Both the position numbers and the translations under genes were made by a program. Shown here in pieces: positions 8,887 through 28,431 of a DNA stretch of 32,000 nt (positions are counted from its first letter, which is position 1; each line of letters begins with the position of its first letter). The notes below the pieces were generated by a model, which did not search any database, was not told where the DNA came from, and saw only the letters and a list, made by a program, of their open reading frames with translations. The DNA is from Planctomycetales bacterium (GTDB taxonomy: Bacteria > 4484-113 > JAFGCY01): positions 3,810,001 through 3,842,000 of the forward strand of contig CP060262.1 of NCBI GenBank assembly GCA_022646745.1, written 5' to 3'.

Positions 8887-8892
8887 AAAAAT

Positions 8893-12906: not shown

Positions 12907-13626
12907 CTATCCGGCAGGAGCAGCACCCTGTTCAGAAAGTCGCAGCATTTGCGGAAACAGAAGATTGTTCTCCAAATGCACGTGAAGATGGGTGTCTCGC
13001 TCGAGATTCTCCAACCTTGAGATAAGAGCCTGCTGCTTGCGACACATCCCTTCTCCTGCAACATAACCCCTGTGGATCGAACGCATCTCCGACAGCATCT
13101 GCCCGATAGATTCGTGTTCCTCAACGTAACCATCCAGCAGGACATTGACTGCGGATCTGATTTCATTCGTGGACCCTTCCATGATTGGACCGCACAGGGG
13201 GAAGAGCACCTGCTCCTCGTTTCGCATGTGATTTTCCATTTCCCCACGCAGTGCCCTGAACAACTCCAGTGACTTCATGAGTTGGGGCTGCTGGGCCGCA
13301 TGATGGCTGCAGACATGGACATGCAGTTCATCCAGGCGGGGCAATTCCTCCCACAGGAAAGCATGGTGTGTCCCGAGGATATGACCTGCCAGCCTCACCA
13401 GACCGGCATTCTGCAGGTCTATTCCATCGTCTGATGATTCTTCATCACACGCTGACAGAGCAGTCAGGATTTCGTCAGGGTCGATGCCACCCCTCTCGCA
13501 GACCTCACGCAGAGGAACATTGCCACCACAGCAGTAGTCAATGCCGTAGCTCTCAAAGACCCTGGTTCGGGCCATGTTCTCAGTTGCCATTTCCGCTACT
13601 GTCCGCCCGGAATCAAGTGTTTTCAT
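12907..13626 (-). CDS. ric: iron-sulfur cluster repair di-iron protein (RIC; YtfE/ScdA/DnrN family)
   Basis: ScdA_N-type N-terminus VFESYGIDYCCGGNVPLREVCE, followed by hemerythrin-like His/Glu repeats (HILGTHHAFLWEELP; EMENHMRNEEQVLFP; YVEEHESIGQML; THLHVHLENNLLFP). ATG at 13626 with GGAAGGA upstream; the longer listed ORF start (13749) overlaps nosY. Confidence 0.85.
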   Translation of the reverse strand: MKTLDSGRTVAEMATENMARTRVFESYGIDYCCGGNVPLREVCERGGIDPDEILTALSACDEESSDDGIDLQNAGLVRLAGHILGTHHAFLWEELPRLDELHVHVCSHHAAQQPQLMKSLELFRALRGEMENHMRNEEQVLFPLCGPIMEGSTNEIRSAVNVLLDGYVEEHESIGQMLSEMRSIHRGYVAGEGMCRKQQALISRLENLERDTHLHVHLENNLLFPQMLRLSEQGAAPAG

Positions 13627-13648
13627 GTCAGTCCTTCCTACGAGTGAT

Positions 13649-14488
13649 TTAAATATCCTGGCGGCGCAGCAGCAGGGCCGCCAGCCAGCCAGGCAGCACA
13701 ATCCAGCCTGCAAGTGCAGCGCCAAGAAGCAAGAGTGCCTCACTGACACCGCCCAGAGACCTCACCAGCAGCACGCCAGCAGCACCGAACATCTCCTTGC
13801 CTACAGTCGCCAGCAATGTGGATATCCGTGTGGCATCCACCGGGTTCAGGAACAGGCTGATGTAACTCACGCGGTTGGCAACTCCCTCCGGCAGGAGGAA
13901 CCCAAGCCCGATTATGCCAAGGTCATACAGCAGCACCATCACAAACCATGCGATCAGGACCACTCCGTAGCTTCGGTGCGAGCGCTGCATGGCGATTGTC
14001 AGCAAAGCCGCGATGGAGCAGAAGGAGCATGCGATCGCCAGGCTGTACCCCACCAGCACCAGGTAGCTGCCCAGTCCCACGGTCCCAGTCTCCCTGGCGA
14101 TCATGACACCGGGCAGCCCGAAACCGACGAGTGTTGCCAGGCTGAGTGCGGAGCTTACACCGAACAGTTTTCCGGCCACAATCTCCGCGCGGGTGATCGG
14201 TTCTGTGAACAGCTGGTCCGTACAACCACCATCGGCGGTGAAACTCTGGACAGTCATCAGCATCGCGGCTAGTGGAACAATGTACAGGACCAGGTTCAGC
14301 AGGCTGGCAGTCGTACGCTCAAAGCCCTGGAAGCCCGTAAACTCAATGATGCTCAGGCCGAAATAACTGACCGCAGTTGTCAGGACGGTGAAGATCGCGG
14401 CATAGACGAAGATCCAGCGGTTGCGCAGTGCAATGCGCAATTCCTGGCGTGCGATTATTCCGCTGATGCGCAGGGAAATCGTGCTCAT
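13649..14488 (-). CDS. nosY: NosY, ABC-2 type permease of the Cu-processing NosDFY system
   Basis: Polytopic membrane protein directly coupled to nosL (ATGA overlap at 14485-14488), in nosDF(L)Y context. N-terminus MSTISLRISGIIARQELRIALRNRWIFVYAAIF is typical of NosY/ABC-2 permeases. Confidence 0.8.
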   Translation of the reverse strand: MSTISLRISGIIARQELRIALRNRWIFVYAAIFTVLTTAVSYFGLSIIEFTGFQGFERTTASLLNLVLYIVPLAAMLMTVQSFTADGGCTDQLFTEPITRAEIVAGKLFGVSSALSLATLVGFGLPGVMIARETGTVGLGSYLVLVGYSLAIACSFCSIAALLTIAMQRSHRSYGVVLIAWFVMVLLYDLGIIGLGFLLPEGVANRVSYISLFLNPVDATRISTLLATVGKEMFGAAGVLLVRSLGGVSEALLLLGAALAGWIVLPGWLAALLLRRQDI

Positions 14489-14931
14489 GGCTGCCACTCC
14501 AGGACCAGCTGGTCCCACTGCATGACGGTTCCAGGCCATTCCTTGCCCGCCTGCTCAGCTCCTGCCGGGCTCTCGAATGCTCCCAGCCCGTAGCTCATCG
14601 GTGAGGGCAAGTCCTTCGCATGCAGGAAATATGCCTGGTCGGCCCTGAGCCAGGCCTGGCTGTCAAAATCCACCACGAAGGCAACTGCTCCCTCCGGAAT
14701 GCCTGGATCACGGGCCATTTCAACAAGGCAGCCGATGTCATCGAAGTAGAATGCGGTCCTGTCTGTCTTGACGATCTCTGCTGCAAACCTGCGCTGTGAG
14801 ACGGCCATGCGGCAGACCTCACAACTGTCCTCATCCAGCACTATCTCAATCGGTTCCGGTGGACCCTTGCTGCATGATGCAAGAAGCAGGCAGAGCACGA
14901 GCAGGCTACTGGTGGCCCTATTCTTCTTCAT
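14485..14931 (-). CDS. nosL: NosL copper chaperone lipoprotein
   Basis: Lipoprotein signal MKKNRATSSLLVLCLLLASC. NosL-like motifs CEVCRM, FDDIGC and SPMSYGLGAF. Confidence 0.85.
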   Translation of the reverse strand: MKKNRATSSLLVLCLLLASCSKGPPEPIEIVLDEDSCEVCRMAVSQRRFAAEIVKTDRTAFYFDDIGCLVEMARDPGIPEGAVAFVVDFDSQAWLRADQAYFLHAKDLPSPMSYGLGAFESPAGAEQAGKEWPGTVMQWDQLVLEWQP

Positions 14932-15850
14932 TGTCTGCCTCCTCAGCCCCTTTCAGGTACTGCACGTAGACATCCTCCAGCGTGGGGCGCTCGGTGTCGA
15001 AGTCCAACACTGGACCAATACTGCGAAAGCGATCGAGAATCTCCATGCGTTCGGTGCCGCAGCCGGTCACGAGCACGGACTGGCAGTTAAGCGAGGCATC
15101 CAGCGCACCGGCTGCCAGGGCGGCTTCTACATGAGCCGGCTGCGGGTTGCCGACGTTGATCCGCAGTCGGGCCGTGCGGCTGAGACGACTGCGGAGCCTG
15201 GCGACCGGCTCATCTGCGACCGGGGCACCGTCAACCAGCACAATCACACGGCTGGCCAGTGCTTCAACATCAGCGAGGACATGGGTTGACAGGAGGATCG
15301 CCCGTCCATCGTCACGCCACTTTGCCGCCGTCACGCGGAAGTCAAGTGCTCCCTGTGGATCCAGATTGGCTGTCGGTTCATCAAACAGCATCAGGTCCGG
15401 ATCACCGAGACTGCTGAGCGCCAGTGCCAGGCGCTGCCGCATGCCTCCCGAGAGCTGTCCAGAAGTGCGTTCGAAGGCCGATTCCGCCAGTCCACATGCA
15501 AGCAGGGCCTTATCCGCGGAATCGCGTCCCAGTCCCCGCAGGCTGGCATGGAAAACAGCAATCTCTCGCACGGTCAGCTGGGCGGGGAATTGCGCCTGCT
15601 GGGGCAGATAACTGAATTGCCTACGTGCATCCCTGTACTGGCGCTGCAGGTCAAAGCCGTTGACACTGATGATGCCGCTGTCAGCGCGAAGCAGCCCGGC
15701 AATGCAGCGGATCGTGGTTGTCTTACCACCTCCGTTGGGGCCGAGCAGCGCAACCACCTCTCCGGGAGCCACTGCAAGGCTGACTCCGCGGACGGCCTTG
15801 ACGTCACCGTAATTCTTGTAAAGCCCGTCAACTCGCAATACGTCTGTCAT
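14918..15850 (-). CDS. nosF: NosF, ABC transporter ATP-binding protein
   Basis: Walker A GPNGGGKTTT, signature LSGGMRQRLALA, Walker B LMLFDEPTANLD. The ATG at 15850 overlaps the nosD stop (ATGA). The upstream 46 codons of the listed ORF overlap nosD and are rejected. Confidence 0.9.
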   Translation of the reverse strand: MTDVLRVDGLYKNYGDVKAVRGVSLAVAPGEVVALLGPNGGGKTTTIRCIAGLLRADSGIISVNGFDLQRQYRDARRQFSYLPQQAQFPAQLTVREIAVFHASLRGLGRDSADKALLACGLAESAFERTSGQLSGGMRQRLALALSSLGDPDLMLFDEPTANLDPQGALDFRVTAAKWRDDGRAILLSTHVLADVEALASRVIVLVDGAPVADEPVARLRSRLSRTARLRINVGNPQPAHVEAALAAGALDASLNCQSVLVTGCGTERMEILDRFRSIGPVLDFDTERPTLEDVYVQYLKGAEEADNEEE

Positions 15851-17880
15851 TTTGCCAACCCCCTGATACCGAACAGGCAACCGCCCCACCCGAGCAGCGC
15901 CAGCACTGCTAGTGCCAACGATCCCCTGGGGCGGGCCCTGTCTCCAGGTTCCAGTTGCAGCCTGACGCCACTCACGGGATGGGTCCAAGGCTCGGGATCC
16001 AGTACCTCGCTGTGAGGGAGAACCGGGAAACTCCGTTCAGCGAGAACCAGAGCGTCTGCAGCCGCACTTGACAGATAGAGTTTCAGGAGGGGATGGTTTC
16101 CGGTGAGATGCTCGAAGGCATCCTGCAGCTTATGCGGCACATCACCAAGGCCATCCCCATCGAGGTCGTAACCTTCGTAGTCTGAATAGTAATTGCCTCC
16201 GCCTTCAGCTCCCCAGTCCATGGTGGAGCGGCCGATCGTGCGAAGGGTGGCGATGTTCTGGATGAAGTCATTGTGTTCGAAAGTCGTATTCAGTGAACTG
16301 CCGAAGACTACAGCTCCAACATCATTGTAGGCAACAAGGTTATTGCGCAACAGGGTGTTTTCTGCCTGCTCCAGGAAGAATCCGCAGGTGTTGTTGACAA
16401 TCACGTTACGCTCTGCCGTGCAGTCGTAGCAGCTCTGGAAGAGCAGCCCGAATGCATTGTGCCCGAGCCTGTTGTTCAGGATCAGGTTCTCACTGAAGCT
16501 GACATTGTTCGTGTACATGATTGCCGCACCGGCCACGCTGTCGCGGAAGACGTTGCGGTAGAACTCGTTGGCTTCGCAGTACATGTAATGCACTCCGTAG
16601 CGCAGTTCGGCGAAGCGGTTGTCCTCCACGACGTTGTAGTTGGAGTGGTCAAAGTAGACACCGTCGCGCACTGTCTTGACATCGTTGTCCCGTATCACGC
16701 AGTTATGGCTGTCGTACAGATGCAAGCCTGCTCCGCGGCTGCCGATGCCGACATCCGCACGGCCGCGGATCACGTTCCCCTCGACGGTGGCCCTTTCAGC
16801 GAGACGGAACATCACCCCGAAGAGGTTGTCACTGAGCCTGCAGTCCTTCACCTGTGCGTCATTCGCCGTAATGTGGATTCCCGCGTCACTGTGCATCATG
16901 TCCTTGCCGGAGCCTGAGATGTCCAGGCCGGCCAGGCTGACACCGTCCGCGGCAATCGTGACTACACTTCCCTGCCGCTCGCCGATGATCCGCGGGAATT
17001 CCACCCCCCGGATGCTGAGCTGCTTGTCAATGACGAGGTTTCCCGGGTATTCACCGGGCAGAATGACTATCTGGTCACCGGGACCTGCTGCGGTGATGGC
17101 CGCCGCGGGTGTGGTGAATTGTCCGCCGGGACCCACTCGCAGCTCAGCTGCATCCGCGGTGGAAGGCAGCAATGGGGCGGCAAGCAGGATGAATACTGCC
17201 AGTCCTGCTCCGTTCCCGGCCGAAAGTTCCGATCGCTGCCGGCGCCAGTCTCTCCAGGCCTGCCAGAGGGCGATGAAGGTGGCGAGTGCCAGGATGCCCC
17301 CGAAGATCATCAGGGCATAGCTGGCCTCCCCCGGGAAACTCTCAACCCAGAAGTTGGCAACCTTCACCCTGCCGTAGAGCGGCGGAGTGAAGGGCTCGAC
17401 CTTGATGGGCGCCTCCGGGTCCAGGATGTGGCCGTAGTTGTAGAGCTTGTTGTAGAAGTCCCAGAAGCTGAACAGTGCGAAGTACACGAACAGCATGAAG
17501 ACGTCAACGATGTCCCGCAGCCTGCCGAGGAAGATCAGCCGCAGGCACAGCAGTCCGAATATCCCGATCGCGAAGGGCAGCCAGAGGAACTCGGCGAAGT
17601 CACTCTCCAGCAGCGGCTTCATGCCGATGTAGTGGTTCAGTGAGTTGATCTCGCGCAGGTCGTCACGATCCGCAGTCTTCTGACCCTCGAGATGGTCGAC
17701 ATGGATTGCCATCTTCAGCGGATCGGGGTACTGGTTGCTGGTGAAGCTCATGGTCCACAGCGGTCCCCCGATCCACACGAAGGGCAGTGCCGCCAGGGAG
17801 ATGAGCAGCAGCAGCCGGACCAGCCAGCCAAGTGGCCGTCCGAAGAAATCATAGTAAGCTTCCATCCTGTGCTGCATCAT
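15847..17880 (-). CDS. nosD: NosB-like four-TM membrane domain fused in frame to NosD (periplasmic parallel beta-helix Cu-processing protein)
   Basis: The N-terminal ~225 aa carry four hydrophobic helices (LVRLLLLISLAALPFVWIGG; FLWLPFAIGIFGLLCLRLIFLG; VFMLFVYFALFSFWDF; YALMIFGGILALATFIALWQAW), sitting directly after nosZ where clade II clusters carry nosB. A signal-peptide-like stretch follows (GLAVFILLAAPLLPSTADA), then NosD beta-helix repeats (GVSLAGLDISGSG..., NVIRGRADVGIGSRGAGLHLYDSHNCVIRDNDV...). I found no stop and no ATG/GTG between the two parts. GGGAG lies 5 nt upstream of the ATG at 17880. Confidence 0.8.
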   Translation of the reverse strand: MMQHRMEAYYDFFGRPLGWLVRLLLLISLAALPFVWIGGPLWTMSFTSNQYPDPLKMAIHVDHLEGQKTADRDDLREINSLNHYIGMKPLLESDFAEFLWLPFAIGIFGLLCLRLIFLGRLRDIVDVFMLFVYFALFSFWDFYNKLYNYGHILDPEAPIKVEPFTPPLYGRVKVANFWVESFPGEASYALMIFGGILALATFIALWQAWRDWRRQRSELSAGNGAGLAVFILLAAPLLPSTADAAELRVGPGGQFTTPAAAITAAGPGDQIVILPGEYPGNLVIDKQLSIRGVEFPRIIGERQGSVVTIAADGVSLAGLDISGSGKDMMHSDAGIHITANDAQVKDCRLSDNLFGVMFRLAERATVEGNVIRGRADVGIGSRGAGLHLYDSHNCVIRDNDVKTVRDGVYFDHSNYNVVEDNRFAELRYGVHYMYCEANEFYRNVFRDSVAGAAIMYTNNVSFSENLILNNRLGHNAFGLLFQSCYDCTAERNVIVNNTCGFFLEQAENTLLRNNLVAYNDVGAVVFGSSLNTTFEHNDFIQNIATLRTIGRSTMDWGAEGGGNYYSDYEGYDLDGDGLGDVPHKLQDAFEHLTGNHPLLKLYLSSAAADALVLAERSFPVLPHSEVLDPEPWTHPVSGVRLQLEPGDRARPRGSLALAVLALLGWGGCLFGIRGLAK

Positions 17881-17908: not shown

Positions 17909-19792
17909 TTACTTGACGAGCAGGTAACCCTGCATCTCCTGGTGCAGTGCGCTGCAGAAGTTCGTGCAGTAGTAGGCGAACACGCCCGGCTTGTCCGCCA
18001 CGAAGGTCACGCTCTTGGTCTCGCCCGGGTCGATCACGAGGTTGATGTTGTAGCCGCCGATGCCGAGACCGTGCAGCTCATCCGTCGTCTGTTCGATGTT
18101 CGTCACGTGGATAGTCACCGTGCTGCCGCGCGGCACCTCAATGTCCGTCGGAGTGAGGGTGGATCGCGTGGCCACCATCCTGATCTCGACGTTGTTGCCA
18201 TTCACCGTCATGCCCGCATCCGCGATGTCCCAGATGGCATGGGGATTGGTGTTCTCCTCCATCGGGTAGACCTCGATCGGATTGAGCAGGTCAGCAGGAC
18301 AGGCCTGGGCGTAGTGCGGCTCAGGCTCCGTGTATGACTCGTAGAGCATCTTCATCTTCGAGCCCGTGATGTCAATCAGCTGGCTGCTTTCCGGCTGGCT
18401 CGGCCCGACGTTGAGGTGCCGGCCGTGGGACAGCTTGTTCATGGCGATCACGTACTTGCCGTATGGCTTGGCGGAATCACCGCCGGGTACCATCAGATGG
18501 CCGATGTTGTAGGCGCAGGGAATGGTGTCCAGCACCTCACCGGTGTTGGGATCCCACTTGGCGATGGCGCTGTCAATATACAGACTCGTATAGGCCATGC
18601 CCTTGTCGTCATACTGCGTATGCAGCGGGCCGTTGCCGACCTGGCATTCACGCAGGGCGATGCTGTCGTAGTTGAGCACGGGAATGCCGTCCTCGTCCCC
18701 GGTGTAGTCCTTGGCCTGGATCGCATCGAGCATCTGCTGGAAGCTGTAGACAGTGGTGACGGCCTCGAGCTTGCCGCTGCCGACGAACATCGTGCCGTCG
18801 GGGGTCACGTCAACGCCATGGGGGCTCTTGGGAATCGGGATCAGGTAGACGATGTCCTTGTCAACGGCGGGATCGATGATCCGCACGCCGTCCATCATCA
18901 TGCCCTTGCCGGCATTGACAGCGGCCTCGGCCAGCTTCCAGTTGACGGCGATGACGTAGTCGCGGTCATTGGCGGATGCCGTCTTCTCGAGCTCACCCGT
19001 GGCGCGCTCGGAGTTGTAGCAGGTGAAGAACACCCAGTCCGCGGACGGGCCGCGACCGGTGGAACCGAGGTCCCAGTTGAAGGGCGGGGTCATGATCTGG
19101 AATCCGTGGCTCATCTCACCCGTGTCCGGGTCGACCTTGAGCGCGCCGACAAGCCCCTTCCATTCGGAGGCATAGTTCTCAATCGAGGAATAGCTGCCCT
19201 TGGGAATAGGGATCGAGAAGCGGCTGGCATAGGTCAGGTACTCGGTGTTGGAGGTGCAAAACGAGCCGCCGTGCAGACCGGAGCAGTTGGGAATGGGGCC
19301 GATGATCTGCTTGGTCTTGAAGTCGCGCAGGTCAATGCGGGCATAGCGGCTGTTAGCGTTGTCGTTGACGAAGAGCCAGCGGCCGTCATACTCCGCGTTC
19401 TTGCGGGATAGCGTGGGGTGATGCACATCGCCCCAGGTGAAGTCACCGAGCATCTCCCGGGTTTCATTGTCAAAGCCGTAGCCGGTGGCAGGATAGGGCG
19501 CGAAGACAGGAATCGTGGAGATGTGCCGCATTGATGGAATGCCGGCCACATAGACCTGGCCGCTGTGCCCCCCGCTGTAGAACAGGTACATGTCATCCAG
19601 GTCTCCTGGAGCGACATATGTACTGGTTGCCGCATCGGCCTGCGAACCTGTGGCTCCGCGCTCGGAACCCCTCGCCCGGCTGTCCTCTTCTCCGCCGCCG
19701 CCTCCGCAGCCCCAGAGGGTGTATGCCGTTGCCACAATGGCAAGGATGAGCCAGAACAAGCTTTTCGAAGCTTGAGACTTGATGGATTGCAT
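17909..19792 (-). CDS. nosZ: nitrous-oxide reductase NosZ, clade II (Sec-dependent, lipoprotein-type signal)
   Basis: C-terminal CuA site YYCTNFCSALHQEMQGYLLVK. His-rich propeller body (DVHHP, LHGG, SPHGVDV, GHL). The N-terminus MQSIKSQASKSLFWLILAIVATAYTLWGC has no twin-arginine motif and ends in a lipobox. GAGGAGG lies 7 nt upstream of the ATG at 19792. Confidence 0.93.
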   Translation of the reverse strand: MQSIKSQASKSLFWLILAIVATAYTLWGCGGGGGEEDSRARGSERGATGSQADAATSTYVAPGDLDDMYLFYSGGHSGQVYVAGIPSMRHISTIPVFAPYPATGYGFDNETREMLGDFTWGDVHHPTLSRKNAEYDGRWLFVNDNANSRYARIDLRDFKTKQIIGPIPNCSGLHGGSFCTSNTEYLTYASRFSIPIPKGSYSSIENYASEWKGLVGALKVDPDTGEMSHGFQIMTPPFNWDLGSTGRGPSADWVFFTCYNSERATGELEKTASANDRDYVIAVNWKLAEAAVNAGKGMMMDGVRIIDPAVDKDIVYLIPIPKSPHGVDVTPDGTMFVGSGKLEAVTTVYSFQQMLDAIQAKDYTGDEDGIPVLNYDSIALRECQVGNGPLHTQYDDKGMAYTSLYIDSAIAKWDPNTGEVLDTIPCAYNIGHLMVPGGDSAKPYGKYVIAMNKLSHGRHLNVGPSQPESSQLIDITGSKMKMLYESYTEPEPHYAQACPADLLNPIEVYPMEENTNPHAIWDIADAGMTVNGNNVEIRMVATRSTLTPTDIEVPRGSTVTIHVTNIEQTTDELHGLGIGGYNINLVIDPGETKSVTFVADKPGVFAYYCTNFCSALHQEMQGYLLVK

Positions 19793-19802: not shown

Positions 19803-21053
19803 TCAGTTTTCCTGCGTCTTGGACGCATTCCCGCCGTCTCCGGCCGGGACCGTACCGGCATCAGCGGCCGCATCGGTTCCGGCGTCCGCTTTCTGCTGTG
19901 TGTGCTTTTCGTAGGCAAGATGCATCAGTCTTGCCGCCTCCGCCTTTTCCTCGTCCGTGAGGATGATCTGCTTGGACAGAACGACTGACATCGTGCCACT
20001 GGGATTGGCAAGGAAGTCCTCCACGGTCCGGCCGAATCGGCGCGGTACATCCTCCGCGGCCAGAGCCAGGTCCGGACCGATCTTGGTGGCGGAGAAGATC
20101 CCGAGGCTGGAAACATCGTGGCAGATGAAGCATGTCTTTTCCACGAAGAAGCGTCCTTCGCCTTCGAGCATCACGCGCTCACGCTCAGCCTCCTCCGGCG
20201 TGGGTTCGTCAGACAGTCCCTTGATCGGGAGCAGTTCCAGCGGAATGTCATGCTGGCGCCAGCTGAGCATGAGCATCGTCACGGCCTGCGCCTCATCCGT
20301 CTTCAGACCGAAGTTGGGCATGATCGTGTCGCCCGTAAAGGCCTTGGGATCCTGCAGGTGCCCTACCTGCCAGTTGAAGACTGAGGGGAAATTCGTCAGT
20401 CTCTCAAAGTCGTACTGCTCCGGATGCTTGTCACCGATGTTTGTCAGGTCAGGCCCGATCGTTCCCCCTCGTGCATTGATCGTATGACAGGCCCTACAGC
20501 CCTTGTCGTTGACAATCTGCTTCGCGAGGTTGAGCCTGTCCATTCCGGGAACATCCCGTTCGTAGCGGTGGCAGGCATTGCACTTCATCTCAATGAAGGC
20601 GAAGGGATCGCTGATCTTGTAGTCATCAGCCAGCTGGCTGTCCAGCAGCGGGTCTTCCCAGTGCTTGATCCAGCCGTGGGCATCCTTGAGTCCGGTGGCA
20701 TTTCCCTGTCCTCCGTGGCACAGGGTGCATCCGAATTCGTCGATCGGATGATTGGCAAGTGGCTCCGGAGGATGACTGCGGAACGGTTCAGGCGCATCCT
20801 CCAGCCCGGCCCAGCTGACACCGAGATGGCAACTGATGCATCTGTCCACCCGGCCGGCGGGTTCCACCCAGATCTGCTGTATGCCGCGGGGAACGGCCGC
20901 GGCCTTTTCCGGTCCCAGCTTGTCCTCGACCAGGCGGCGGAACCGGGCCTGGTATGCGAGGTAGCCCGGCGCGGAATTGCGCTGGGCGGCCCAGGCGAGT
21001 GCCAGCAGGGACAGGACCCCGATGATCAGCATGATGTTTCGGTCGCGGTTCAA
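19803..21053 (-). CDS. pentahaem c-type cytochrome, membrane-anchored
   Basis: Five CXXCH motifs: CISCH, CTLCH, CNACH, CRACH, CFICH. N-terminal anchor IMLIIGVLSLLALAWAA. The start at 21053 is TTG with GGAGGAGG 7 nt upstream; an ATG 7 codons downstream is an alternative. Confidence 0.85.
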   Translation of the reverse strand: MNRDRNIMLIIGVLSLLALAWAAQRNSAPGYLAYQARFRRLVEDKLGPEKAAAVPRGIQQIWVEPAGRVDRCISCHLGVSWAGLEDAPEPFRSHPPEPLANHPIDEFGCTLCHGGQGNATGLKDAHGWIKHWEDPLLDSQLADDYKISDPFAFIEMKCNACHRYERDVPGMDRLNLAKQIVNDKGCRACHTINARGGTIGPDLTNIGDKHPEQYDFERLTNFPSVFNWQVGHLQDPKAFTGDTIMPNFGLKTDEAQAVTMLMLSWRQHDIPLELLPIKGLSDEPTPEEAERERVMLEGEGRFFVEKTCFICHDVSSLGIFSATKIGPDLALAAEDVPRRFGRTVEDFLANPSGTMSVVLSKQIILTDEEKAEAARLMHLAYEKHTQQKADAGTDAAADAGTVPAGDGGNASKTQEN

Positions 21054-21067
21054 GGTTGCGCCTCCTC

Positions 21068-22432
21068 CTACAGTTGCGGTGGGAAGTCAGGCCAGGACTC
21101 CCACGGCCAGATGACGGTCCAGTAGGGACCACGCAGGTATGTGCCGAGATATGTCAGCGCGATCACGGCGATGCAGACGACGATGAACACCGTATTCTGC
21201 AGCCTGCGTTCCCGGCTGAACCAGACGCCGACACTGGAGCGGGAGGATCTGTCCAGGAACGGCGTGAGGAATCCCCACAGCAACATTGCTCCCGGGATGA
21301 GGACCCCGCCCAGGAAACCGCCGTTGACAGTAAAGCCGCCGATGCGGACCGTCGTGATGGCAACAAGCTCCTGGAGCCACAAGAAATACCAGGGGGCCTT
21401 GGCAGGATTAGGCGTGACCATCGGGTTGGCAGGCTCTTCCAGCGGCGATCCGAGCCAGACCGCCAGAGCGCTGGTCAGTGCGAAGGTGAGCAGGCAGGCA
21501 ATGCTGATCCTCCTGATCAGCCCGGGGACTGCGCGGATCTTGTACCTGTCCTCATCCACGAGACTCGCTTCCACCGTCGCGCTCCGGCCGGCGGTCACTC
21601 CGAGCAGGGAATACGTCTTGCTGGGCTCAGGACGGGCCGGTGCAGCACGTTCCGCCAGGGCCAGCCTGTCATCACAGGCCATGCCATCCTTGCGGATGCG
21701 CCACATGTGCCAGAGGAACAGACCGGTGACGATCAGCGGCAGGAACACGCAGTGCAGCACATAGAAACGGATCAGCGTGTTCTGGTTGATCTCGTTGCCG
21801 CCCAGCAGGAAGAAGCGGATGTCGTTGCCAACAACCGGCACCGCCTGCGCGATGTTCGTGCCAACGGTGATTGCCCAGTAGGCCAGCTGGTCCCAGGGCA
21901 GCAGGTATCCGGTAAAGCTGAGGAAGAGTGTCAAGACCAGCAGCACCAGGCCGATCCACCAGTTCAGTGGCCGGAACTGCCTGGCCAGCCCGCCGTTGCG
22001 GTAGGCACCCGTCAGGAATACCCGCACCATGTGAAGGAAGACCATGGCCACCATCAGGTGTGCGGCGATGCGGTGGCTGGCTCTGAGGAAACTGCCGAAG
22101 CTGACCGCATACTCAATGTCCTTGATAGAGGCGTAAGCCCGCTCCACAGACGGGATATAGTGGAACATCAGAATCACGCCGGTGAATACAAGGTAGAAGA
22201 ACAGGAATGCGGTGATCGTGCCCAGCCAGTAGCTGTAGCGGATGCTGATCGACTCAAGCGACACGCGGTTGGGGAACCAGTGCAGCATGAAGTTGGTGAC
22301 GATGGCATCTCCAGCTTCCTTCTGGCTGCGTGGCGACCAGCTCCAGTTCCAGTCCTCCAGTCTGAAGCCTCCGCCCCTGTCCTGCTTGCCAGTTTTCCTG
22401 CCTGTGGCAGGGACTGTCTTGCTCTGTTTCAC
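21068..22432 (-). CDS. cytochrome b, b6-type with fused subunit-IV-like C-terminal domain
   Basis: Helix B: [19 protein letters not shown] (His-X13-His). Helix D: [25 protein letters not shown] (His-X14-His, the b6-type spacing). The C-terminal part carries a PEWY-equivalent, [13 protein letters not shown] start at 22432, 2 nt after the Rieske stop. Confidence 0.85.
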
Positions 22433-22434
22433 TT

Positions 22435-22977
22435 TCAGCTCCTGACCGTCAGCCGCCAGAGTTTGTCAGCGGGCCTGGACTTGTCAACTATCAGCTGGCC
22501 GTCATCTGCGGCGATTTCAAGCATGTAGTAATCAAGCGGACGCGGAGCCGGACCGGCGAAATTCGTGCCGTCCGCCCGGAACATGCTGCCGTGGCAGGGG
22601 CAGTGGAATTCGAAGCCTCCATCAGCCTCAGGAATCTTTGCCAGTTGGACCGTACAGCCGAGATGGCTGCAGACTGCCCCGATGCAGTGCATCGTTTCCC
22701 CTTCGCGAAAGACGAACAGCCTGTGTTCCGAAATGAACACCCCGCCTTCGGTGAATCGTTCCAGCGGTCCGACCTTGAAGCGCTGCGGCGGCTCGTACAA
22801 CACATTGGGAATCACCGAGCGAAAGCTCATCGCAGCAGGAATGGCGCAGGCCAGCCCGAGTGCTGCAAGCCCCATGCTGCCTACGAATCCCCGGCGCGAG
22901 ATGCCGCCCTCCGGGGTCAGGTCGTACTTGCCGTCCCCGGCCTCCGCAGCGGGATTTTCCTGTTCAGAACTGCTCAT
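22435..22977 (-). CDS. Rieske [2Fe-2S] protein with twin-arginine signal
   Basis: Tat motif [18 protein letters not shown]. Cluster boxes CSHLGC and CPCHGS. Confidence 0.9.
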
Positions 22978-24865
22978 AGTAGAGAACCTCCATCGTCATG
23001 GCGTCAGTCGGGCAGCGGATGGCACACAGTCCGCAGCGGATGCACAGCTCGTCATCCTTGATCATCACGGACATCGGTCCGTTGCCATCCAGACCCGCCA
23101 GTTGCAGTACCTTTTGTTCATCATCCGTCGCCAGCTGGACCTCTTCATACGGCACGAGCTTCAGGCAGGCTGTCGGGCAGACATCGACGCAGCGGTTGCA
23201 CAGAACGCATTTCTGTGGATCGTAGATTGTCTGGATGTGGCAGGCGAGACAGCGGCTGGCCTGTTCCATCGCCTGCGCCTCGCCGTAGGTTTCCTCAACT
23301 TCGCTGATGCCGGTCCGCCTTCCCAGATCCGTTGTCGGCGGGGCGGCCCGCGGCTTCATCTCATATTCGTCCTCACGCTCGAAGCGCGAGGTCTGGATCT
23401 TCTCGAAGCGCAGCCGGAAGCCGAACTCCCGCCGGCCGCCGCGCAGCTTCCGGTCGATGGAGGCCGCGGCCCGCTTGCCGTCCGCCACTCCGTCAATCAG
23501 GTTGCGCGGACCATATGCCACATCCCCGCCCGCGAAGACATCGGCTGCGGAGGTGGCATTCGTCTCCGGATCCACCCTGATGATGCCGCCGGGGTTAAGC
23601 GTGATGCCGTCGTCCGGCCTGATGAAGTCCAGCTCGGCCTGCTGGCCGATTGCCAGAATCACCAGGTCGGCGTCCAGCTCCTCCCGCAGATTCTCATTGA
23701 ACACCGGGGAGAAGCGGCCTTCGTCATCATATGTACGCTCCACGCCGATGAGCTGCACCTTTTCCACATGCCCAGTGCCACTCATGCTGGCAACACCGCG
23801 CTGGTGCAGAATGCGGATACCTTCACGGATCGTATCCTCGAACTCCTCGCGTCCCTGTTCCGTGCGGGTGACCGGCATTTCCCTGAAGCTTTCCAGGCAG
23901 GCCAGCGTCACCTCAGCTCCACGCCGGGCGGCGATGCGGGCCGCGTCCAGCGCGGACTGGAAGCTGGAGCCATGTGTTTTCAGCTCAGGTTCGGCACTCA
24001 TGGCCCGCAGCGCCATGCGCGCGGCGTCAAATGCCACCAGTCCGCCCCCCAGCACCAGCACCTTGCTGGCCTTCGGTACACGATAGCCATTGTTGATGTT
24101 GATCAGGTAGTCAATCGCCCGCACCACGCCGTCCAGCTCACTGCCCGGGCAGTTCAGTCCGCGGCCCTTCTGCAGGCCGATGCCGAGGAAGATCGCCTCG
24201 AAGCCCTGCGCCCGCAGCTCGCGAATGCCGAACGCACTGTTCAGCGGGGTGTTGTAGCGGAACTCGACTCCCAGACTGGTTATGAACTCGATTTCACGGT
24301 CCAGCAGGCTGCGGCTCAGACGGAACTCCGGGATGCCGTGGTAGGCCATGCCTCCACCACGCTGCGTCGCCTCGAACACCGTCACGTCGTAGCCGAGAAT
24401 CGCCAGGTCATGCGCACAGGCCAGTCCTGCCGGCCCGGCACCAACTACCGCCACCCGCCGGCCCTTGCCCAGTCCCTTAAGTCCGGGTTCACTGCTCAGA
24501 TGCCATAGCCACTTGTTGCCGGGTTCCGCCGCACCCTCGACAAGGCCGCGCACAGTATCTGGTGAGCTTGATTCGACGCCGTACCTGTCCATCACCACGC
24601 GCTTCAGCGCACGGATGGATACCGGTGCATCGAACAGTCCTCGGCGGCATTTGTCCTCGCAGGGTGCAGCGCAGACCCGTCCGCAGATTGACGCCAGCGG
24701 GTTGGGTGAGCGGGCTGTCAGGAAGGCTTCCTCGAAGCGCCCTTCCTGAATCAGCTGCACATACCGGCCACTGTCCGTCAGGACCGGGCAGGCCATCTGG
24801 CAGGGGATGCGGCTTGTCCAGTAGTTGACATCCGGCAGGCTGACCTTGTAGACAGGCTTGCTCAT
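22964..24865 (-). CDS. GltD-like NAD(P)H-dependent FAD oxidoreductase with C-terminal 2x[4Fe-4S] ferredoxin domain
   Basis: N-terminal Fe-S region CQMACPV...NPLASICGRVCAAPCEDKCRRG. Dinucleotide folds VAVVGAGPAGLACAHDLAILGYDVTVFE and VLVLGGGLVAFDAARMA. C-terminal CVLCNRCVDVCP and CIRCGLCAIRCP. No signal peptide. It overlaps Rrf2 by ATGA and the Rieske gene by 14 nt. Confidence 0.85.
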   Translation of the reverse strand: MSKPVYKVSLPDVNYWTSRIPCQMACPVLTDSGRYVQLIQEGRFEEAFLTARSPNPLASICGRVCAAPCEDKCRRGLFDAPVSIRALKRVVMDRYGVESSSPDTVRGLVEGAAEPGNKWLWHLSSEPGLKGLGKGRRVAVVGAGPAGLACAHDLAILGYDVTVFEATQRGGGMAYHGIPEFRLSRSLLDREIEFITSLGVEFRYNTPLNSAFGIRELRAQGFEAIFLGIGLQKGRGLNCPGSELDGVVRAIDYLININNGYRVPKASKVLVLGGGLVAFDAARMALRAMSAEPELKTHGSSFQSALDAARIAARRGAEVTLACLESFREMPVTRTEQGREEFEDTIREGIRILHQRGVASMSGTGHVEKVQLIGVERTYDDEGRFSPVFNENLREELDADLVILAIGQQAELDFIRPDDGITLNPGGIIRVDPETNATSAADVFAGGDVAYGPRNLIDGVADGKRAAASIDRKLRGGRREFGFRLRFEKIQTSRFEREDEYEMKPRAAPPTTDLGRRTGISEVEETYGEAQAMEQASRCLACHIQTIYDPQKCVLCNRCVDVCPTACLKLVPYEEVQLATDDEQKVLQLAGLDGNGPMSVMIKDDELCIRCGLCAIRCPTDAMTMEVLYYEQF

Positions 24866-25338
24866 GTGGCACTTCCGTTATCAGGGGAGTCGTGCGGCTC
24901 AGTGCTCTGTACCCGGACCAGCCGCCCCAGTCCCTTGATTTCCAGCTCCGAAAGACGGATGTACTGGAGATAGTCCCGCACCTGTCGGTTCACGATGCTC
25001 ACGAGCTGGCCGAAGACGCAGCTTTTGCCATCACAGACGGCCGGGGTCTGGGTGCAGCAGACATCCCCGACCGGTCCATCGATGGCTTCGAACACATCGA
25101 GCATGATGATTTCCCGTGAAGGGCGGGCCAGCACGAATCCGCCCGCCGGTCCTCTGGTGCTCGCCACGAATCCGGCACGGGCCAGGCGCTGGAGTACCTT
25201 CGACTGGTGGGCTTCCGAGCGATGCAGTTTCCCGGCGATGGCGCGCGCTGTCATCGGCTCACCTCCAGCGCAGGCCAGCACCACCATGGTGTGCAGGGCC
25301 ATTGCTGCAGCCTCGGAAATGTTGAGCGCTCTTGCCAT
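24862..25338 (-). CDS. Rrf2-family transcriptional regulator (NsrR/IscR-like, Cys-containing)
   Basis: ISEAAAMALHTMVVLACAGGEPMTARAIAGKLHRSEAHQSKVLQRLARAGFVASTRGPAGGFVLARP is a typical Rrf2 winged helix. Cys cluster GDVCCTQTPAVCDGKSC. ATG at 25338 with GGAG upstream. Confidence 0.85.
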   Translation of the reverse strand: MARALNISEAAAMALHTMVVLACAGGEPMTARAIAGKLHRSEAHQSKVLQRLARAGFVASTRGPAGGFVLARPSREIIMLDVFEAIDGPVGDVCCTQTPAVCDGKSCVFGQLVSIVNRQVRDYLQYIRLSELEIKGLGRLVRVQSTEPHDSPDNGSAT

Positions 25339-25352
25339 CTCAGCTCCATACT

Positions 25353-25374
25353 GGTATTCCGGAATCAGAATACC
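25353..25374. promoter_or_regulatory. palindrome GGTATTC-N8-GAATACC, candidate Rrf2 operator
   Basis: Perfect 7-bp arms, beginning 15 nt upstream of the rrf2 start codon and overlapping the putative -10. Confidence 0.4.
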
Positions 25375-25394
25375 TGATATCTGTGATATGTCAA
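25367..25394 (-). promoter_or_regulatory. putative sigma70-type promoter of the rrf2-...-nos-ric operon
   Basis: Minus strand reads TTGACA (25394-25389), a 16-nt spacer, then TATTCT (25372-25367), ~30 nt upstream of the rrf2 ATG. Sequence match only. Confidence 0.35.
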
Positions 25395-25944
25395 GTATGT
25401 CATATTTGAATAACAAAAGTTCTGTTACCTGCTGGATGCCAAGTCGCAATCATTCGGAGATCTAACGAAGCGCGGGTTGACGGAAGCAAGCTGGCCGTAA
25501 TCCAGGAGCAGCAAATCAACAGGCAGCAGCGGCGAAAGATCCCGGGTGCCGCAGTGATCTGCCGCTTCTAGGATTCATTCGCCGGTCTGGCGCTGCGCTG
25601 GCGCAAGCGCTGCCAGCGGGTCGCGCGGAAGATGCGGGTGGCCGGAAGAAACACGCGCCGAAGGGCTGGAACTTGTTCTGGCACTATCGGCAGACCGTCG
25701 AGCGCTGAGCGAGACGGCAGGATATCCAGGTTCCGCGCGAAAACGCCTGCGGCGTGACTTCGCCGGTGGCTCAGCCCGGAGTTGGCGCAGCGCCAGACCC
25801 GCGAATATTCGGATGAGCTCTTAATCTGTTCTGGCAACAAATCTCATCCAACACACGCTTCCGTCCTGTATACCAAAACAATCAGACTAAATGTAAATTC
25901 CTGGGTAGTTTCGGATCGACAACGGCATAGCACCAGGCTGTTCA

Positions 25945-26226
25945 TCACTCGTAAGGCTGTCGGTATATTTCCAGATTCTCCAGTGCAAAATCTTCGGGGA
26001 ACTCCTCCCCAAAAAATATTTCCTGGCAATTCTCACTCATCCAGCTCATGTGCAACAGTGCCGGGAACAACTTTAGTCCCGCGGGTATGCTCCTGTCATA
26101 TACCGCCAGTTTGAACTGGTTGTTGTCATCTAATTCGTGCAGAATGACTGAATATTGTTCAAGTTGCGTAAATGCAATGTTTTCAACATAAGTAACGTTT
26201 GCCTGATCGAAATACAAGCGCTGGAC
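25945..26226 (-). pseudogene. 3' fragment of a low-GC gene of unknown function, truncated by the IS end at 26227
   Basis: The listed ORF 25945-26307 runs from inside the IS left end. Only ...RLYFDQANVTYVENIAFTQLEQYSVILHELDDNNQFKLAVYDRSIPAGLKLFPALLHMSWMSENCQEIFFGEEFPEDFALENLEIYRQPYE* lies outside the IS. It is A+T-rich, unlike its neighbours. Confidence 0.45.
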
Positions 26227-26300
26227 TGACCTGCCCCCCAATAACTGGTCCACTTGTGAAGTGATAGATCGGACCGGAAACATATTGGAGGAGCAGGCAA

Positions 26301-26579
26301 ATGCCAAGGAAGAAGTACAGCCCGGAAGACATCATCAGGCTGTTGCGTGAGGCGGAAGTGCTGATCAGCGAGGGGATGCCCACCCGGCAGGCCGCACGCA
26401 AGATCGGTGTCAGCGACCAGGCCTATTACCACTGGCGACGTGAATACGGCGGGATGCGGATAGAGCAGGCCCGGCGGCTCAAGAACCTGGAGAAGGAGAA
26501 CGGCCGCCTCAAGCAGCTGGTGGCAGACCTGTCCCTTGACAACCAGATCCTCAAGGAAGCATCACGGGGAAACTTCTGA
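26301..26579 (+). CDS. IS3-family transposase OrfA (HTH + leucine zipper)
   Basis: MPRKKYSPEDIIRLLREAEVLISEGMPTRQAARKIGVSDQAYYHWRREYGGM...LKNLEKENGRLKQLVADLSLDNQILKEA is a typical IS3/IS407 OrfA. Confidence 0.85.
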   Translation: MPRKKYSPEDIIRLLREAEVLISEGMPTRQAARKIGVSDQAYYHWRREYGGMRIEQARRLKNLEKENGRLKQLVADLSLDNQILKEASRGNF

Positions 26580-26893
26580 GCCCGGCGAGGCGCCGCCGGG
26601 CGGTGGAACATGTCTCCGACAGGCTGCGGGTTTCGCAGAGGCGGGCCTACCGGGTGATCGGCCAGCCCAGGTCCAGCCAGCGGTACATTGCAAGTGGCCG
26701 CAGCGATGAACCTGCATTGGTTGAATGCATTGTCGGGCTTGCCAGCCAGTATGGACGGTATGGCTATCGACAGATCACGTCCATGCTGCGCAATGCAGGC
26801 TGGCATGTGAATCACAAGCGTGTGGAGCGAATCTGGAGGCAGGAAGGGCTGAAGGTTCCAAGCCGGCAACCCAAGCGTCGCAGGCTATGGCTG
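26573..26893 (+). pseudogene. IS3-family transposase OrfB, N-terminal fragment only
   Basis: The -1 frame relative to orfA reads LLSPARRRRAVEHVSDRLRVSQRRAYRVIGQPRSSQRY...YGRYGYRQITSMLRNAGWHVNHKRVERIWRQEGLKVPSRQPKRRRLWL. The integrase core is missing. Confidence 0.75.
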
Positions 26894-27523
26894 AAGTGTG
26901 AGCTCAAGTGCAGAAGAGCAACTGGACGGGCCTTCGACTTGCGTTCCCGGGCGGCAACGACCCGACGAGTACATGGTGAGCAGCTCAGCAACATCTCCCC
27001 TACCCCACTCCGATCACTCCTATATGCCCGGTGTTGGCGGCCTTCTTGGTATTCTGGCAATTTGGTTAGTAGTAGAAAGCACTTGACTATCTCACCTGAG
27101 ATCAAGCAAGAATCAGGAAGAAAACCTCCATCTGACTGCTTTGTGCTCCAAAAGCTCTTGACGACTCCATATCACGTCAAGAGCCAGGAACCCTTTACTG
27201 ATCAAGTCTCACGGCATGCCAGAAATCTACAGCTTCGAAAGCAGCACCATGTGTATTGTTTACAATGGCATATTGTCAGAATTCACTTGATGCACTTCCA
27301 TAGTTACGGTAAGCTTGATTTGTACGGAACGTACAGCGCAGACCTTCGCCCCCGCTTTTCCGTACTGTCCTGGGCGAGACAAACCAACTCAATTCGCGTA
27401 GCTTTCCTCACCGCTGAGGCAAGTCGGTTCACTTCGCGGACTTCTTTCCTATGCCCTCCGTGGTGCGCTTATGCGCAAATAGTGTATGTGATTCCGAAAC
27501 AATCGGAACGCACGGAGGAAGCA

Positions 27524-27823
27524 ATGAATTGCTTCAATATGGAACCTCACGATGAGATCCGTCGTCGCCATCTGGCCGAAATCGAGACCTACCGGCGTGA
27601 GCAGGAACGCCTGCGCGACGAGTACGAACAGAAGCGCCGCGATGACTTCATCAACCACCAGGTTGAACTTGAGCGAGCCTGTGAAGAAGCAGATGCCGAA
27701 CTGGCGGAGGCTTGCGAGTCTGCCGAAGAAGAGCTGGCCGAAGCGTGGGAGGATGTCATCGAGGAGCAGAACGAAGAGTGGCTCCAGCTCGAGAAGGACC
27801 TCAACGAAGAGCTGAGGCTGTAA
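27524..27823 (+). CDS. small acidic coiled-coil protein, function unknown
   Basis: GGAGG lies 4-5 nt upstream of the ATG at 27524. The 99-aa product is highly charged and helical (EIETYRREQERLRDEYEQKRRDD...AEEELAEAWEDVIEEQNEEWLQLEKDLNEEL). Confidence 0.5.
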   Translation: MNCFNMEPHDEIRRRHLAEIETYRREQERLRDEYEQKRRDDFINHQVELERACEEADAELAEACESAEEELAEAWEDVIEEQNEEWLQLEKDLNEELRL

Positions 27824-27919
27824 GGCTAGTGTGCACAATCTGATTCGACGCTAGTCTTATGTTGGCAACCATTCAATCCAGCAAGGGATGTCATTCGATT
27901 CTGCTCAGGTTTGCTTAAT

Positions 27920-27955
27920 AAGGAAGCTCTAAATCGCAAGGTTTAGAGCTTCCTT
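27920..27955. other. perfect 14-bp-stem hairpin
   Basis: AAGGAAGCTCTAAA-tcgcaagg-TTTAGAGCTTCCTT. No U-tract on either strand. Confidence 0.6.
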
Positions 27956-27995
27956 CCATGCCCTTGATCTGAACGAGAATTGCGGTCGGCAATAC

Positions 27996-28244: not shown

Positions 28245-28296
28245 GGACAGGCACACTTTCCACGCCTATCCGTTCCTATAGGATTACTGCAAGCAG

Positions 28297-28322
28297 GTCA
28301 GCCGGTCTAAGGACGGGCTGAC
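28297..28322 (+). terminator. possible terminator of the 27996-28244 gene
   Basis: GTCAGCC...GGCTGAC 7-bp stem followed by TTTGCTGT. Confidence 0.4.
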
Positions 28323-28373
28323 TTTGCTGTAAAAGCCTTAAATAAGAAAACAAGATGAGTGTAAAAGAAGAAT

Positions 28374-28397: not shown

Positions 28398-28431
28398 GAT
28401 GACAGACTAGCTAGTCAAACATTGCCTAGAT

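Follow-up and report, generated by a model that had tools for sequence, protein, structure and literature searches.

Apart from nitrous oxide reductase (NosZ), no biological sink of nitrous oxide (N2O) is known, and bacteria carrying the clade II enzyme are hoped-for mitigation organisms; the electron route to clade II NosZ is known experimentally for Wolinella only. Gene maps of clade II nos clusters, as far as the figures concerned show, already contain genes labelled 'Fe-S', 'Rieske', 'cyt-b' and 'cyt-c' (PMC11096178 Fig. 5; PMC13122619 Fig. 2), and a general statement on such genes in clade II nos clusters is found in PMC9697520. In anammox bacteria, gene clusters for Rieske/cytochrome b complexes carry NAD(P)-oxidoreductase subunits, and quinol bifurcation to NAD(P)H was proposed for them (PMC12954380; the subunits also appear in PMC5600118). 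NAD(P)-binding iron-sulfur proteins were furthermore reported to adjoin subfamily G cytochromes b, in a study that does not mention nosZ or nitrous oxide (PMC5600118). Here we analysed a stretch of 32,000 nucleotides (in the following, the window) from a Planctomycetales bacterium (assembly GCA_022646745.1, contig CP060262.1, positions 3,810,001 to 3,842,000), in which a GltD/NfnB-like flavoprotein, a Rieske protein, a cytochrome b and a pentahaem cytochrome c are encoded directly upstream of a clade II nosZ. It is well supported by inference that these genes constitute a complete Rieske/cytochrome b module dedicated to NosZ, which would act as a menaquinol:NosZ oxidoreductase, because practically all relatives inherit them together with nosZ and because the last haem domain of the cytochrome c resembles a monohaem cytochrome found next to other clade II nosZ genes. 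On the same two grounds, the initial annotation of the window, which had proposed a module dedicated to N2O reduction, looks right.

That annotation had described four tightly packed genes preceding nosZ, and all of the elements were found again at their positions on the minus strand with the motifs it had given; likewise, its assignments to the GltD/Pyr_redox, 4Fe-4S, Rieske and cytochrome b N/C families were borne out by Pfam and NCBIfam. We searched one genome per species with the flavoprotein as query and obtained 53 loci, 52 of which showed 48-84% identity; the window proteins were then compared with these loci by tblastn. According to the record titles, they belong to Planctomycetota, Acidobacteriota, Ignavibacteria/Bacteroidota, KSB1, Myxococcales and Acidimicrobiia, and they represent at least six phyla. 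Among those loci that extend far enough downstream to be judged, the flavoprotein gene is followed, in this order, by the genes for the Rieske protein (47/47), cytochrome b (44/44) and the pentahaem cytochrome c (39/40) and by nosZ (34/35), with nosD, nosF, nosL and nosY usually coming next. A linkage unique to this contig, which the initial annotation had considered as a sign of chance juxtaposition, is not what the survey shows, since nosZ follows in 34 of 35 loci; in turn, the description of the respiratory chain as unusual overstated its rarity, because the module marks a whole NosZ subclade across Planctomycetota, Acidobacteriota, Ignavibacteria/Bacteroidota, KSB1, Myxococcota and Acidimicrobiia.

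The reverse survey, in which metagenome contigs were searched with a NosZ alignment, comprised 80 loci, and the presence of all four genes was scored where at least 6 kb of upstream DNA was available. For NosZ proteins at least 62% identical to that of the window, the pentahaem cytochrome c gene was located upstream in all 26 cases and the complete set of four genes in all 17; between 57 and 62% identity these numbers dropped to 7/16 and 3/5, and below 57% to 1/12 and 0/7, respectively. A neighbour-joining tree was calculated from 103 NosZ sequences. Every one of the 64 module-positive proteins fell into a single clade with 75 leaves, of which the remaining 11 have too little upstream DNA to be scored, and the module-negative proteins (20/20) were placed outside this clade. 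The nosZ frame of one locus (L025:15203-16912) contains two stop codons, which indicates a pseudogene or an assembly error, and was left out of the alignment for this reason. In both surveys, the flavoprotein gene was never missing where the rest of the module was present. From the conserved synteny and the monophyly of the module-positive NosZ proteins we conclude that the module is a shared, stably inherited character of one NosZ subclade. The arrangement is far beyond chance, since the gene order is kept across phyla and the cofactor ligands, described below, are invariant.

The pentahaem cytochrome c has a single N-terminal anchor and CXXCH motifs at residues 72, 109, 158, 186 and 308, with haems 1-3 located in a multihaem domain and haems 4 and 5 in class-I-type domains. 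Ligand conservation was scored for all subunits over 39-46 homologues from other genomes; in the cytochrome c, the five CXXCH motifs as well as His94, His102, His126 and His232 are invariant. In the module-negative locus L094, the gene immediately upstream of nosZ codes for a monohaem cytochrome c, with which the domain holding haem 5 (residues 297-384) shares 45% identity (E 8e-22). Indeed, module-negative loci with an upstream c-type cytochrome gene mostly carry a monohaem lipoprotein cytochrome c of 130-160 amino acids directly before nosZ, which is the simpler type that the initial annotation had mentioned for clade II. Because of this resemblance of the haem-5 domain, the pentahaem cytochrome looks like a fusion of a Rieske-facing multihaem domain with the usual clade II donor to NosZ, and we regard the likeness as the best evidence at the sequence level that the module is wired to NosZ.

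The Rieske protein (Pfam Rieske, E 6e-13) contains a twin-arginine motif (SRRGF) and the cluster-binding boxes CSHLGC and CPCHGS. The twin arginine and all cluster ligands, in the form C-[ST]-HLGC and CPCHGS, are invariant in 40/40 homologues, and this includes Ser131 of box II; the same serine, as a hydrogen-bond donor, was cited for the potentials of +303 and +335 mV of anammox Rieske proteins (PMC12954380). The cytochrome b matches both Pfam Cytochrome_B (E 5e-44) and Cytochrom_B_C within one open reading frame (ORF); it has seven hydrophobic segments and a b6-like part of four helices. Among solved structures, this N-terminal part is closest to b6 (E 6e-40, compared with about 1e-28 for bc1). 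The haem ligands His120-X13-His134 and His227-X14-His242 are invariant in 45/45 sequences, and so is the motif NPAKAPWY at the predicted quinol oxidation site (Qp), in which Pro replaces the acidic residue of PEWY/PDWY and is preceded by Ala; the APWY is also present in the subunit IV of Scalindua. The Cys that binds haem cn is absent from all 45 nos-linked cytochromes b; the corresponding position, Trp69 in the window, is occupied by Trp in 38 and by Tyr in 7 sequences and aligns with Cys35 of spinach b6 and Cys61 of Scalindua. His51 (motif LHWFP) and His125 are invariant as well. Together with Arg247, they are the invariant residues that we noted beyond the four canonical haem ligands.

The flavoprotein consists of an N-terminal Fer4_20 domain (Pfam E 5e-16), a Pyr_redox_2 domain (E 4e-25) and a C-terminal 2x[4Fe-4S] domain, and it has no hydrophobic N-terminus. 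Six N-terminal Cys residues and the motifs GAGPAG and GGGxxAFDAAR are invariant across homologues, and eleven C-terminal Cys residues are conserved in 44-45 of 46 sequences. Its closest solved relatives are NADPH-binding modules of bifurcating enzymes, namely NfnA (9n5u, E 3e-71), NfnABC (9bov/9bp5), StnC (8oh5) and NfnB (4ylf), with E values from 3e-71 to 2e-38 over the solved NfnB/GltD-type members; 9bp5 is the same PDB entry that the anammox authors matched to Kuste4570 (PMC12954380). The basic pair of NADPH-type enzymes (Tyr-Arg-Arg) after the second Rossmann beta-strand, which binds the 2'-phosphate of NADPH, is absent from the flavoprotein. Instead, Leu324-Glu325-Ser326, which aligns with the Tyr-Arg-Arg of NfnA 9n5u, is invariant in 46/46 sequences, and this replacement suggests, by the Rossmann-fold rule as applied to one motif, that the substrate is NAD+/NADH rather than NADPH. 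An insertion of 16 residues (288-303) follows the second Rossmann motif. Both the insertion and the Leu-Glu-Ser (as CLES) are common to the window flavoprotein and the NAD(P) oxidoreductase of Scalindua, and for this reason the anammox subunit may also prefer NADH.

The parallel to anammox bacteria, which the initial annotation had drawn, was confirmed by direct comparison. Of all PDB entries, the Rieske protein matches 9rk4 (E 2.6e-21) and 9rk3 (E 5e-20) best, i.e. Kuste4569 and Kustd1480 of Kuenenia, whereas Rieske proteins of b6f and bc1 complexes scored about 1e-8. The further comparison was made with Ca. Scalindua rubra (L135), since a Kuenenia-derived query gave 81% at best and another contig (L134) was frameshifted. 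The Scalindua locus encodes, in this order, a Rieske protein, a NAD(P) oxidoreductase of 607 amino acids, a short cytochrome b, subunit IV, a multihaem cytochrome c and an HAO-like octahaem cytochrome. According to BLASTP, the flavoprotein is 36% identical to its Scalindua counterpart over the full length (residues 1-631, E 1.7e-112), the N-terminal part of cytochrome b 52% (E 1.6e-65), the subunit-IV part 33% (E 7e-25, with an identical 10-residue motif in both) and the Rieske protein 38% (E 5e-30), and the pentahaem cytochrome c is 36% identical to the multihaem cytochrome over 59 amino acids that cover the first two haem motifs only (E 2e-8). In the family alignment, His51 of the window cytochrome b corresponds to His43 of Scalindua and Arg247 to Arg247; in AlphaFold3 models, residues of Kuste4571 with these numbers ring an extra interfacial haem b that would bridge bN and the flavoprotein (PMC12954380). 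An extra haem b may also be bound at His51, a lead in which the correspondence to Kuste4571 is one of residue numbers only. Based on these sequence matches, we consider all four window subunits to be homologous to the anammox complex with its NAD(P) oxidoreductase. By pairwise scores, the window Rieske protein, cytochrome b and subunit IV are close to the proteins of the anammox type, which corresponds to cytochrome b subfamily G of Dibrova et al.

In addition to the nos-linked loci, a KSB1 metagenome-assembled genome (MAG; JAKEEU010000026, L048:6690-16685) carries genes for a flavoprotein, a Rieske protein and a cytochrome b that are 58%, 51% and 62% identical to those of the window. In place of the pentahaem cytochrome c and nosZ, this trio is followed by genes for a dihaem cytochrome c that has an EB_dh haem-b domain fused to it and then for a molybdopterin oxidoreductase of 1156 amino acids. 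The position of the trio ahead of a molybdopterin oxidoreductase instead of nosZ suggests that the flavoprotein-Rieske-cytochrome b core is a portable module that may serve other periplasmic reductases. An Acidobacteriota locus (L045) contains a second, divergent cytochrome b/Rieske pair (582-2260, minus strand; 42% and 39% identity), which lies on the other strand than the nos-linked module and some 8 kb upstream of it. In the genome paper of I. album, the organism is described as having ACIII and as lacking a cytochrome b-Rieske complex (PMC3362086). L012, a MAG assigned at species level to Ignavibacterium album, contains the full module of flavoprotein, Rieske, cytochrome b and pentahaem c genes upstream of nosZ; the module was probably overlooked in the annotation of the type strain, and modules of this kind are therefore easily missed.

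The mechanism that we favour, although we would place it just short of an even chance, is a dedicated menaquinol:NosZ complex in which the second quinol electron is bifurcated to NAD(P)+ via the flavoprotein. The four gene products would transfer electrons from menaquinol to the periplasmic NosZ, with the quinol being oxidised at a Qp site made up of the Rieske cluster and, on the side of cytochrome b, the APWY region. In the high-potential branch, the first electron would pass from the Rieske protein to the pentahaem cytochrome c and, via its C-terminal class-I haem domain, to CuA of NosZ. In the low-potential branch, the second electron would cross the membrane from haem bP to haem bN and continue through the cytoplasmic [4Fe-4S] chain and FAD to NAD(P)+, instead of or besides the reduction of quinone at the Qn site; an extra haem, with the invariant His51 as a ligand, may be part of this route. 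The very high potential of the N2O/N2 couple would drive the bifurcation, as proposed for the homologous anammox complexes. We infer that the four proteins form one complex and that the pentahaem cytochrome donates to NosZ; the direction of electron flow through the flavoprotein is the least certain element and is unproven. Quinol bifurcation to NAD(P)+, hypothesised here as in anammox bacteria, nevertheless appears to be the most likely mechanism, because every subunit is homologous to the anammox complex, because the Rieske protein keeps the Ser linked to a high potential despite the menaquinone that the hosts are expected to use, because the core trio occurs with very high-potential acceptors and because the flavoprotein is never lost from the module. 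By our own reasoning, a possible benefit would be that the regenerated NADH re-enters complex I, so that more charges are moved per N2O. Extended to the whole group, this would mean that a widespread clade II subclade (Ignavibacteria, Acidobacteriota, Planctomycetota, KSB1 and others) respires N2O via a quinol-bifurcating complex that sends the second electron uphill to NAD+, and that the core is portable between NosZ, an HAO-like cytochrome and a molybdoenzyme; we put this forward tentatively and consider it rather doubtful as a whole.

Several points weigh against bifurcation. The anammox model is itself unproven, and the nos-linked family is known here from sequence alone. Unlike in anammox bacteria, the nos-linked cytochrome b forms one protein with subunit IV and has no haem-cn Cys (45/45), and the chemistry on the N-side may for this reason differ from that of the anammox complex. 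Most hosts, such as the Ignavibacteria and Acidobacteriota, appear to be heterotrophs, for which a need to drive electrons in reverse to NAD(P)+ is not evident, the nucleotide specificity is read from one motif, and operon status is weakly indicated by gene spacing and a faint promoter match. Electron flow from NAD(P)H into the b haems would be just as conceivable. The same complex would then work in reverse, with NAD(P)H feeding the iron-sulfur chain, bN and an N-side quinone, and would represent a self-contained NAD(P)H:N2O oxidoreductase with a Q-cycle in which NAD(P)+ is never reduced. This is a serious rival, even if we think it unlikely on balance. Gene content, homology and synteny fit it equally well, and it suits hosts that are largely heterotrophic and well supplied with NADH; the invariant Glu325, found where the Arg pair would be, points to catabolic NADH and not anabolic NADPH, and the loss of haem cn together with the fusion of cytochrome b and subunit IV resembles long cytochromes b with a conventional Qn site (PMC5600118). 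On the other hand, bypassing complex I would waste energy, an argument that was made for the anammox complexes (PMC12954380), and a Rieske signature of the high-potential type (Ser131) is, in organisms using menaquinone, more in keeping with a very low-potential b chain. Moreover, the module is paired with very high-potential acceptors, namely N2O, the molybdoenzyme of L048 and the anammox HAO-like cytochrome that is proposed to reduce nitrite (PMC12954380).

Weaker is the possibility, which we regard as improbable, that the module plays a maintenance role like that of NosR, in which electrons from NAD(P)H keep CuZ reduced via the flavoprotein and the b haems and the bulk of the electrons comes from quinol and the Rieske protein or from elsewhere. 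NosR of clade I likewise unites a flavin with transmembrane helices and [4Fe-4S] clusters on the cytoplasmic side, nosR and nosX were not found within the nos cluster, and the constant presence of the flavoprotein gene would fit such a role. However, the trio also occurs with the CuZ-free anammox HAO-like octahaem cytochrome and the CuZ-free molybdopterin enzyme of L048, so that its role is not specific to NosZ maturation, and NosB, the usual clade II candidate, is putatively present in the form of a NosB-like domain. Hardly more probable is that the flavoprotein works as a soluble enzyme in another pathway, e.g. as an NADPH-dependent iron-sulfur reductase in redox repair, which is co-transcribed with the complex and not one of its subunits. 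The complex is, after all, deduced from sequence, GltD-like proteins serve many pathways, and genes for a ScdA/RIC protein for iron-centre repair and an Rrf2 regulator share the operon; but across phyla the flavoprotein gene is the immediate neighbour of the Rieske gene (47/47 loci), whereas the ScdA and Rrf2 genes are only sporadically linked, and in Scalindua the homologous gene is located between those for the Rieske protein and cytochrome b. In Kuenenia, all subunits of the complex co-migrate, according to a complexome study as cited in PMC12954380. That an unrelated bc-type complex came to lie beside nosZ by chance, finally, has a negligible probability and was rejected on the synteny survey: mobile-element genes flank the cluster in the window, and nothing else speaks for it, but the order is kept in 34 of 35 genome loci and in all 17 close metagenome loci, and the module-positive NosZ proteins are monophyletic.

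The features of the cluster are listed in Table 1. Its genes are closely spaced: the stop of the Rrf2 gene overlaps the flavoprotein start by 4 nt, the flavoprotein and Rieske genes overlap by 14 nt, and gaps of 2, 14 and 10 nt separate the Rieske from the cytochrome b gene, the cytochrome b from the cytochrome c gene and the latter from the ATG of nosZ, respectively. A scan of the cluster for promoters and terminators performed no better than on shuffled sequence and yields no more than a weak hint of a single transcription unit. The true start of the Rrf2 gene is probably the ATG near 25338, and the orthologue in the close relative L137 is called at 157 amino acids; NosF, which has 310 amino acids in L137, probably also starts later than its ORF.

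Table 1 Features of the nos cluster in the window, listed in the direction of transcription. Positions refer to the first nucleotide of the window.
Feature	Position	Strand	Basis or remark
Promoter-like site TTGACA-16-TATTCT	25367..25394	-	Upstream of the probable Rrf2 start; consensus match, weak
Rrf2-family regulator, NsrR/IscR-like, Cys-rich	24862..25449	-	Pfam Rrf2 E 8e-26; TIGR00738 above cutoff
GltD/NfnB-like iron-sulfur flavoprotein, 633 amino acids, predicted cytoplasmic	22964..24865	-	Pfam, NCBIfam and PDB matches
Rieske [2Fe-2S] protein, 180 amino acids, predicted Tat-exported and membrane-anchored	22435..22977	-	Pfam and PDB matches
Cytochrome b, 454 amino acids, b6-like part and subunit-IV-like part fused	21068..22432	-	Pfam, NCBIfam
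Pentahaem cytochrome c, 416 amino acids, N-terminal membrane anchor	19803..21053	-	Pfam; five CXXCH
NosZ, clade II Sec-type	17909..19792	-	ATG at 19792; TIGR04246
NosB-like membrane domain fused to NosD, 677 amino acids	15847..17880	-	TIGR04247 NosD matches residues 260-632
NosF ABC ATPase	14918..15988	-	Profile match
NosL copper chaperone	14485..14931	-	Profile match
NosY ABC permease	13649..14539	-	Profile match
ScdA/RIC di-iron protein, iron-centre repair	12907..13749	-	Last gene of the cluster

NosZ scored 829 bits with the model of the Sec-dependent type (TIGR04246, cutoff 625) and 423 bits with the Tat model, and its N-terminus, MQSIKSQASKSLFWLILAIVATAYTLWGC, contains no RR. The signal peptide ends with a lipobox-like LWGC, followed by a Gly-rich linker; because of this motif, NosZ may be tethered to the membrane beside the anchored pentahaem cytochrome c. 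In the ORF after nosZ, the first approximately 240 residues contain five hydrophobic segments and precede the NosD part, and we label this region NosB-like without a score from a NosB profile; one more hydrophobic segment is located at the C-terminus. The same fusion is found in L001, in L137 (681 amino acids) and in some Acidobacteriota loci, and L054 has two separate genes. According to Pfam and NCBIfam, nosD, nosF, nosY and nosL are all present in the cluster. Domain searches of the window ORFs revealed no nosR- or nosX-like ORF in the nos cluster (12.9-25.4 kb). Genes for NosG, NosH and NosC1/C2 are not present here either, and a NosGH-type module was consequently rejected as a candidate.

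The Rrf2 gene is linked to the module mainly in Planctomycetota-like loci (L001, L003, L004, L034, L039, L137), and a ScdA/RIC gene also closes the cluster in L001 and L137. The arrangement with Rrf2, the C-terminal region of which is rich in Cys, first and ScdA/RIC last is reminiscent of the NO-responsive NsrR-ytfE regulon. The nos cluster has a G+C content of about 60%, compared with about 50% in the flanks (window positions 1-12900 and 25500-32000). The flanks encode an RHS-repeat protein (63-5990), a type IV coupling protein (6341-8002), two serine recombinases (9722-12801) and a degenerate IS3 transposase (26301-27823), as well as ORFs of 82 (27996-28244, no match) and 1169 amino acids (28432-31941, minus strand, no Pfam match). 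In L137, the identical 11-gene cluster is situated in a housekeeping context (BipA, Dus) without mobile-type flanking genes. In view of the contrast in G+C content, the mobile-type flanks and the context in L137, the nos island of the window may have moved or have been acquired horizontally.

The module defines a distinct putative N2O respiratory chain, for which it provides a simple genomic marker and which could affect growth yield and the range of electron donors. It also moves the long-standing hypothesis of quinol-to-NAD(P)+ electron transfer from anammox bacteria into organisms for which pure cultures supplied with a simple gaseous acceptor may be feasible; an I. album MAG carries the cluster. 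If true, bifurcation would add to denitrification-related respiration a novel form of energy coupling or of reverse electron transport and would be the first experimentally tractable example of the proposed anammox Rieske/cytochrome b mechanism outside anammox bacteria.

Compared with b6f and Firmicute-type b6c complexes, the window complex shares the His spacing of 13 and 14 residues and the subunit-IV-like C-terminal part; it differs in the fusion of b6 with subunit IV, the lack of haem cn (Trp69 at the position of Cys35), a Qp motif that reads APWY and not PEWY or PDWY, and the presence of a pentahaem c-type subunit and a cytoplasmic flavoprotein. Membership in the b6f family was rejected on account of the missing haem-cn Cys and the single fused cytochrome b ORF. 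With NfnB, GltD, NfnABC and StnC, the flavoprotein has the Fer4_20 iron-sulfur domain and the FAD and NAD(P) Rossmann motifs in common, but it possesses an extra C-terminal 2x[4Fe-4S] domain and the 16-residue insertion, it carries Leu-Glu-Ser where NfnA has Tyr-Arg-Arg, and its gene is associated with a membrane-bound bc-type complex and not with soluble partners. In Wolinella succinogenes, clade II NosZ depends, as proposed for the window, on a Rieske/cytochrome b quinol oxidase and c-type cytochromes, and NosB is present there, compared with a NosB-like domain here; however, a general Qcr complex is encoded elsewhere there and the nos cluster contains the NapGH-like NosGH together with NosC1C2 (Hein et al. 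2017 in PMC11409646), whereas in the window the Rieske/cytochrome b genes are located inside the nos operon and accompanied by a flavoprotein subunit.

The published clade II gene maps, in the parts of these papers concerned, agree with the window in the Sec-type NosZ, the nosB-like gene directly downstream, nosDFLY, the absence of nosR and nosX, and the Fe-S, Rieske, b and c genes upstream of nosZ. The labels in these maps are generic, and the identity of the 'Fe-S' gene with the flavoprotein gene is not confirmed from the figures concerned. The convention behind the maps reportedly goes back to Sanford et al. 2012. In the searchable text of the two map papers, the 'Fe-S' gene is not named as a GltD/NfnB-type flavoprotein and no link to anammox is drawn (PMC11096178, PMC13122619), and a full-text literature search retrieved no work that joins the nos-linked 'Fe-S' gene with GltD/NfnB-like flavoproteins or anammox complexes (nosZ, Rieske proteins and bifurcation occurred together in a single, unrelated paper), with an earlier description being possible in subscription papers.

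The anammox complexes (Kuste4569-4574, Kustd1480-1485 and the Scalindua locus) share with the window a homologous Rieske protein, flavoprotein, cytochrome b and subunit IV, a multihaem cytochrome c with similar first two haem motifs, and the presence of a gene for a terminal N-oxide enzyme in the cluster. In contrast, the terminal enzyme is NosZ in the window and an HAO-like octahaem cytochrome in anammox bacteria; in the window, cytochrome b and subunit IV make up a single protein, from which the haem-cn Cys of the CxGG motif is missing; the window cytochrome c has five haems, the last two in class-I domains, instead of being a hexa- or octahaem protein; the window gene order opens with the flavoprotein and not with the Rieske protein; and hosts of the window type are not anammox bacteria and have no anammoxosome. 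Taken together, these comparisons indicate that the window encodes what is probably an anammox-type, NAD(P)-linked Rieske/cytochrome b complex coupled to NosZ, in a type of gene cluster that had been drawn before and had not been functionally recognised.

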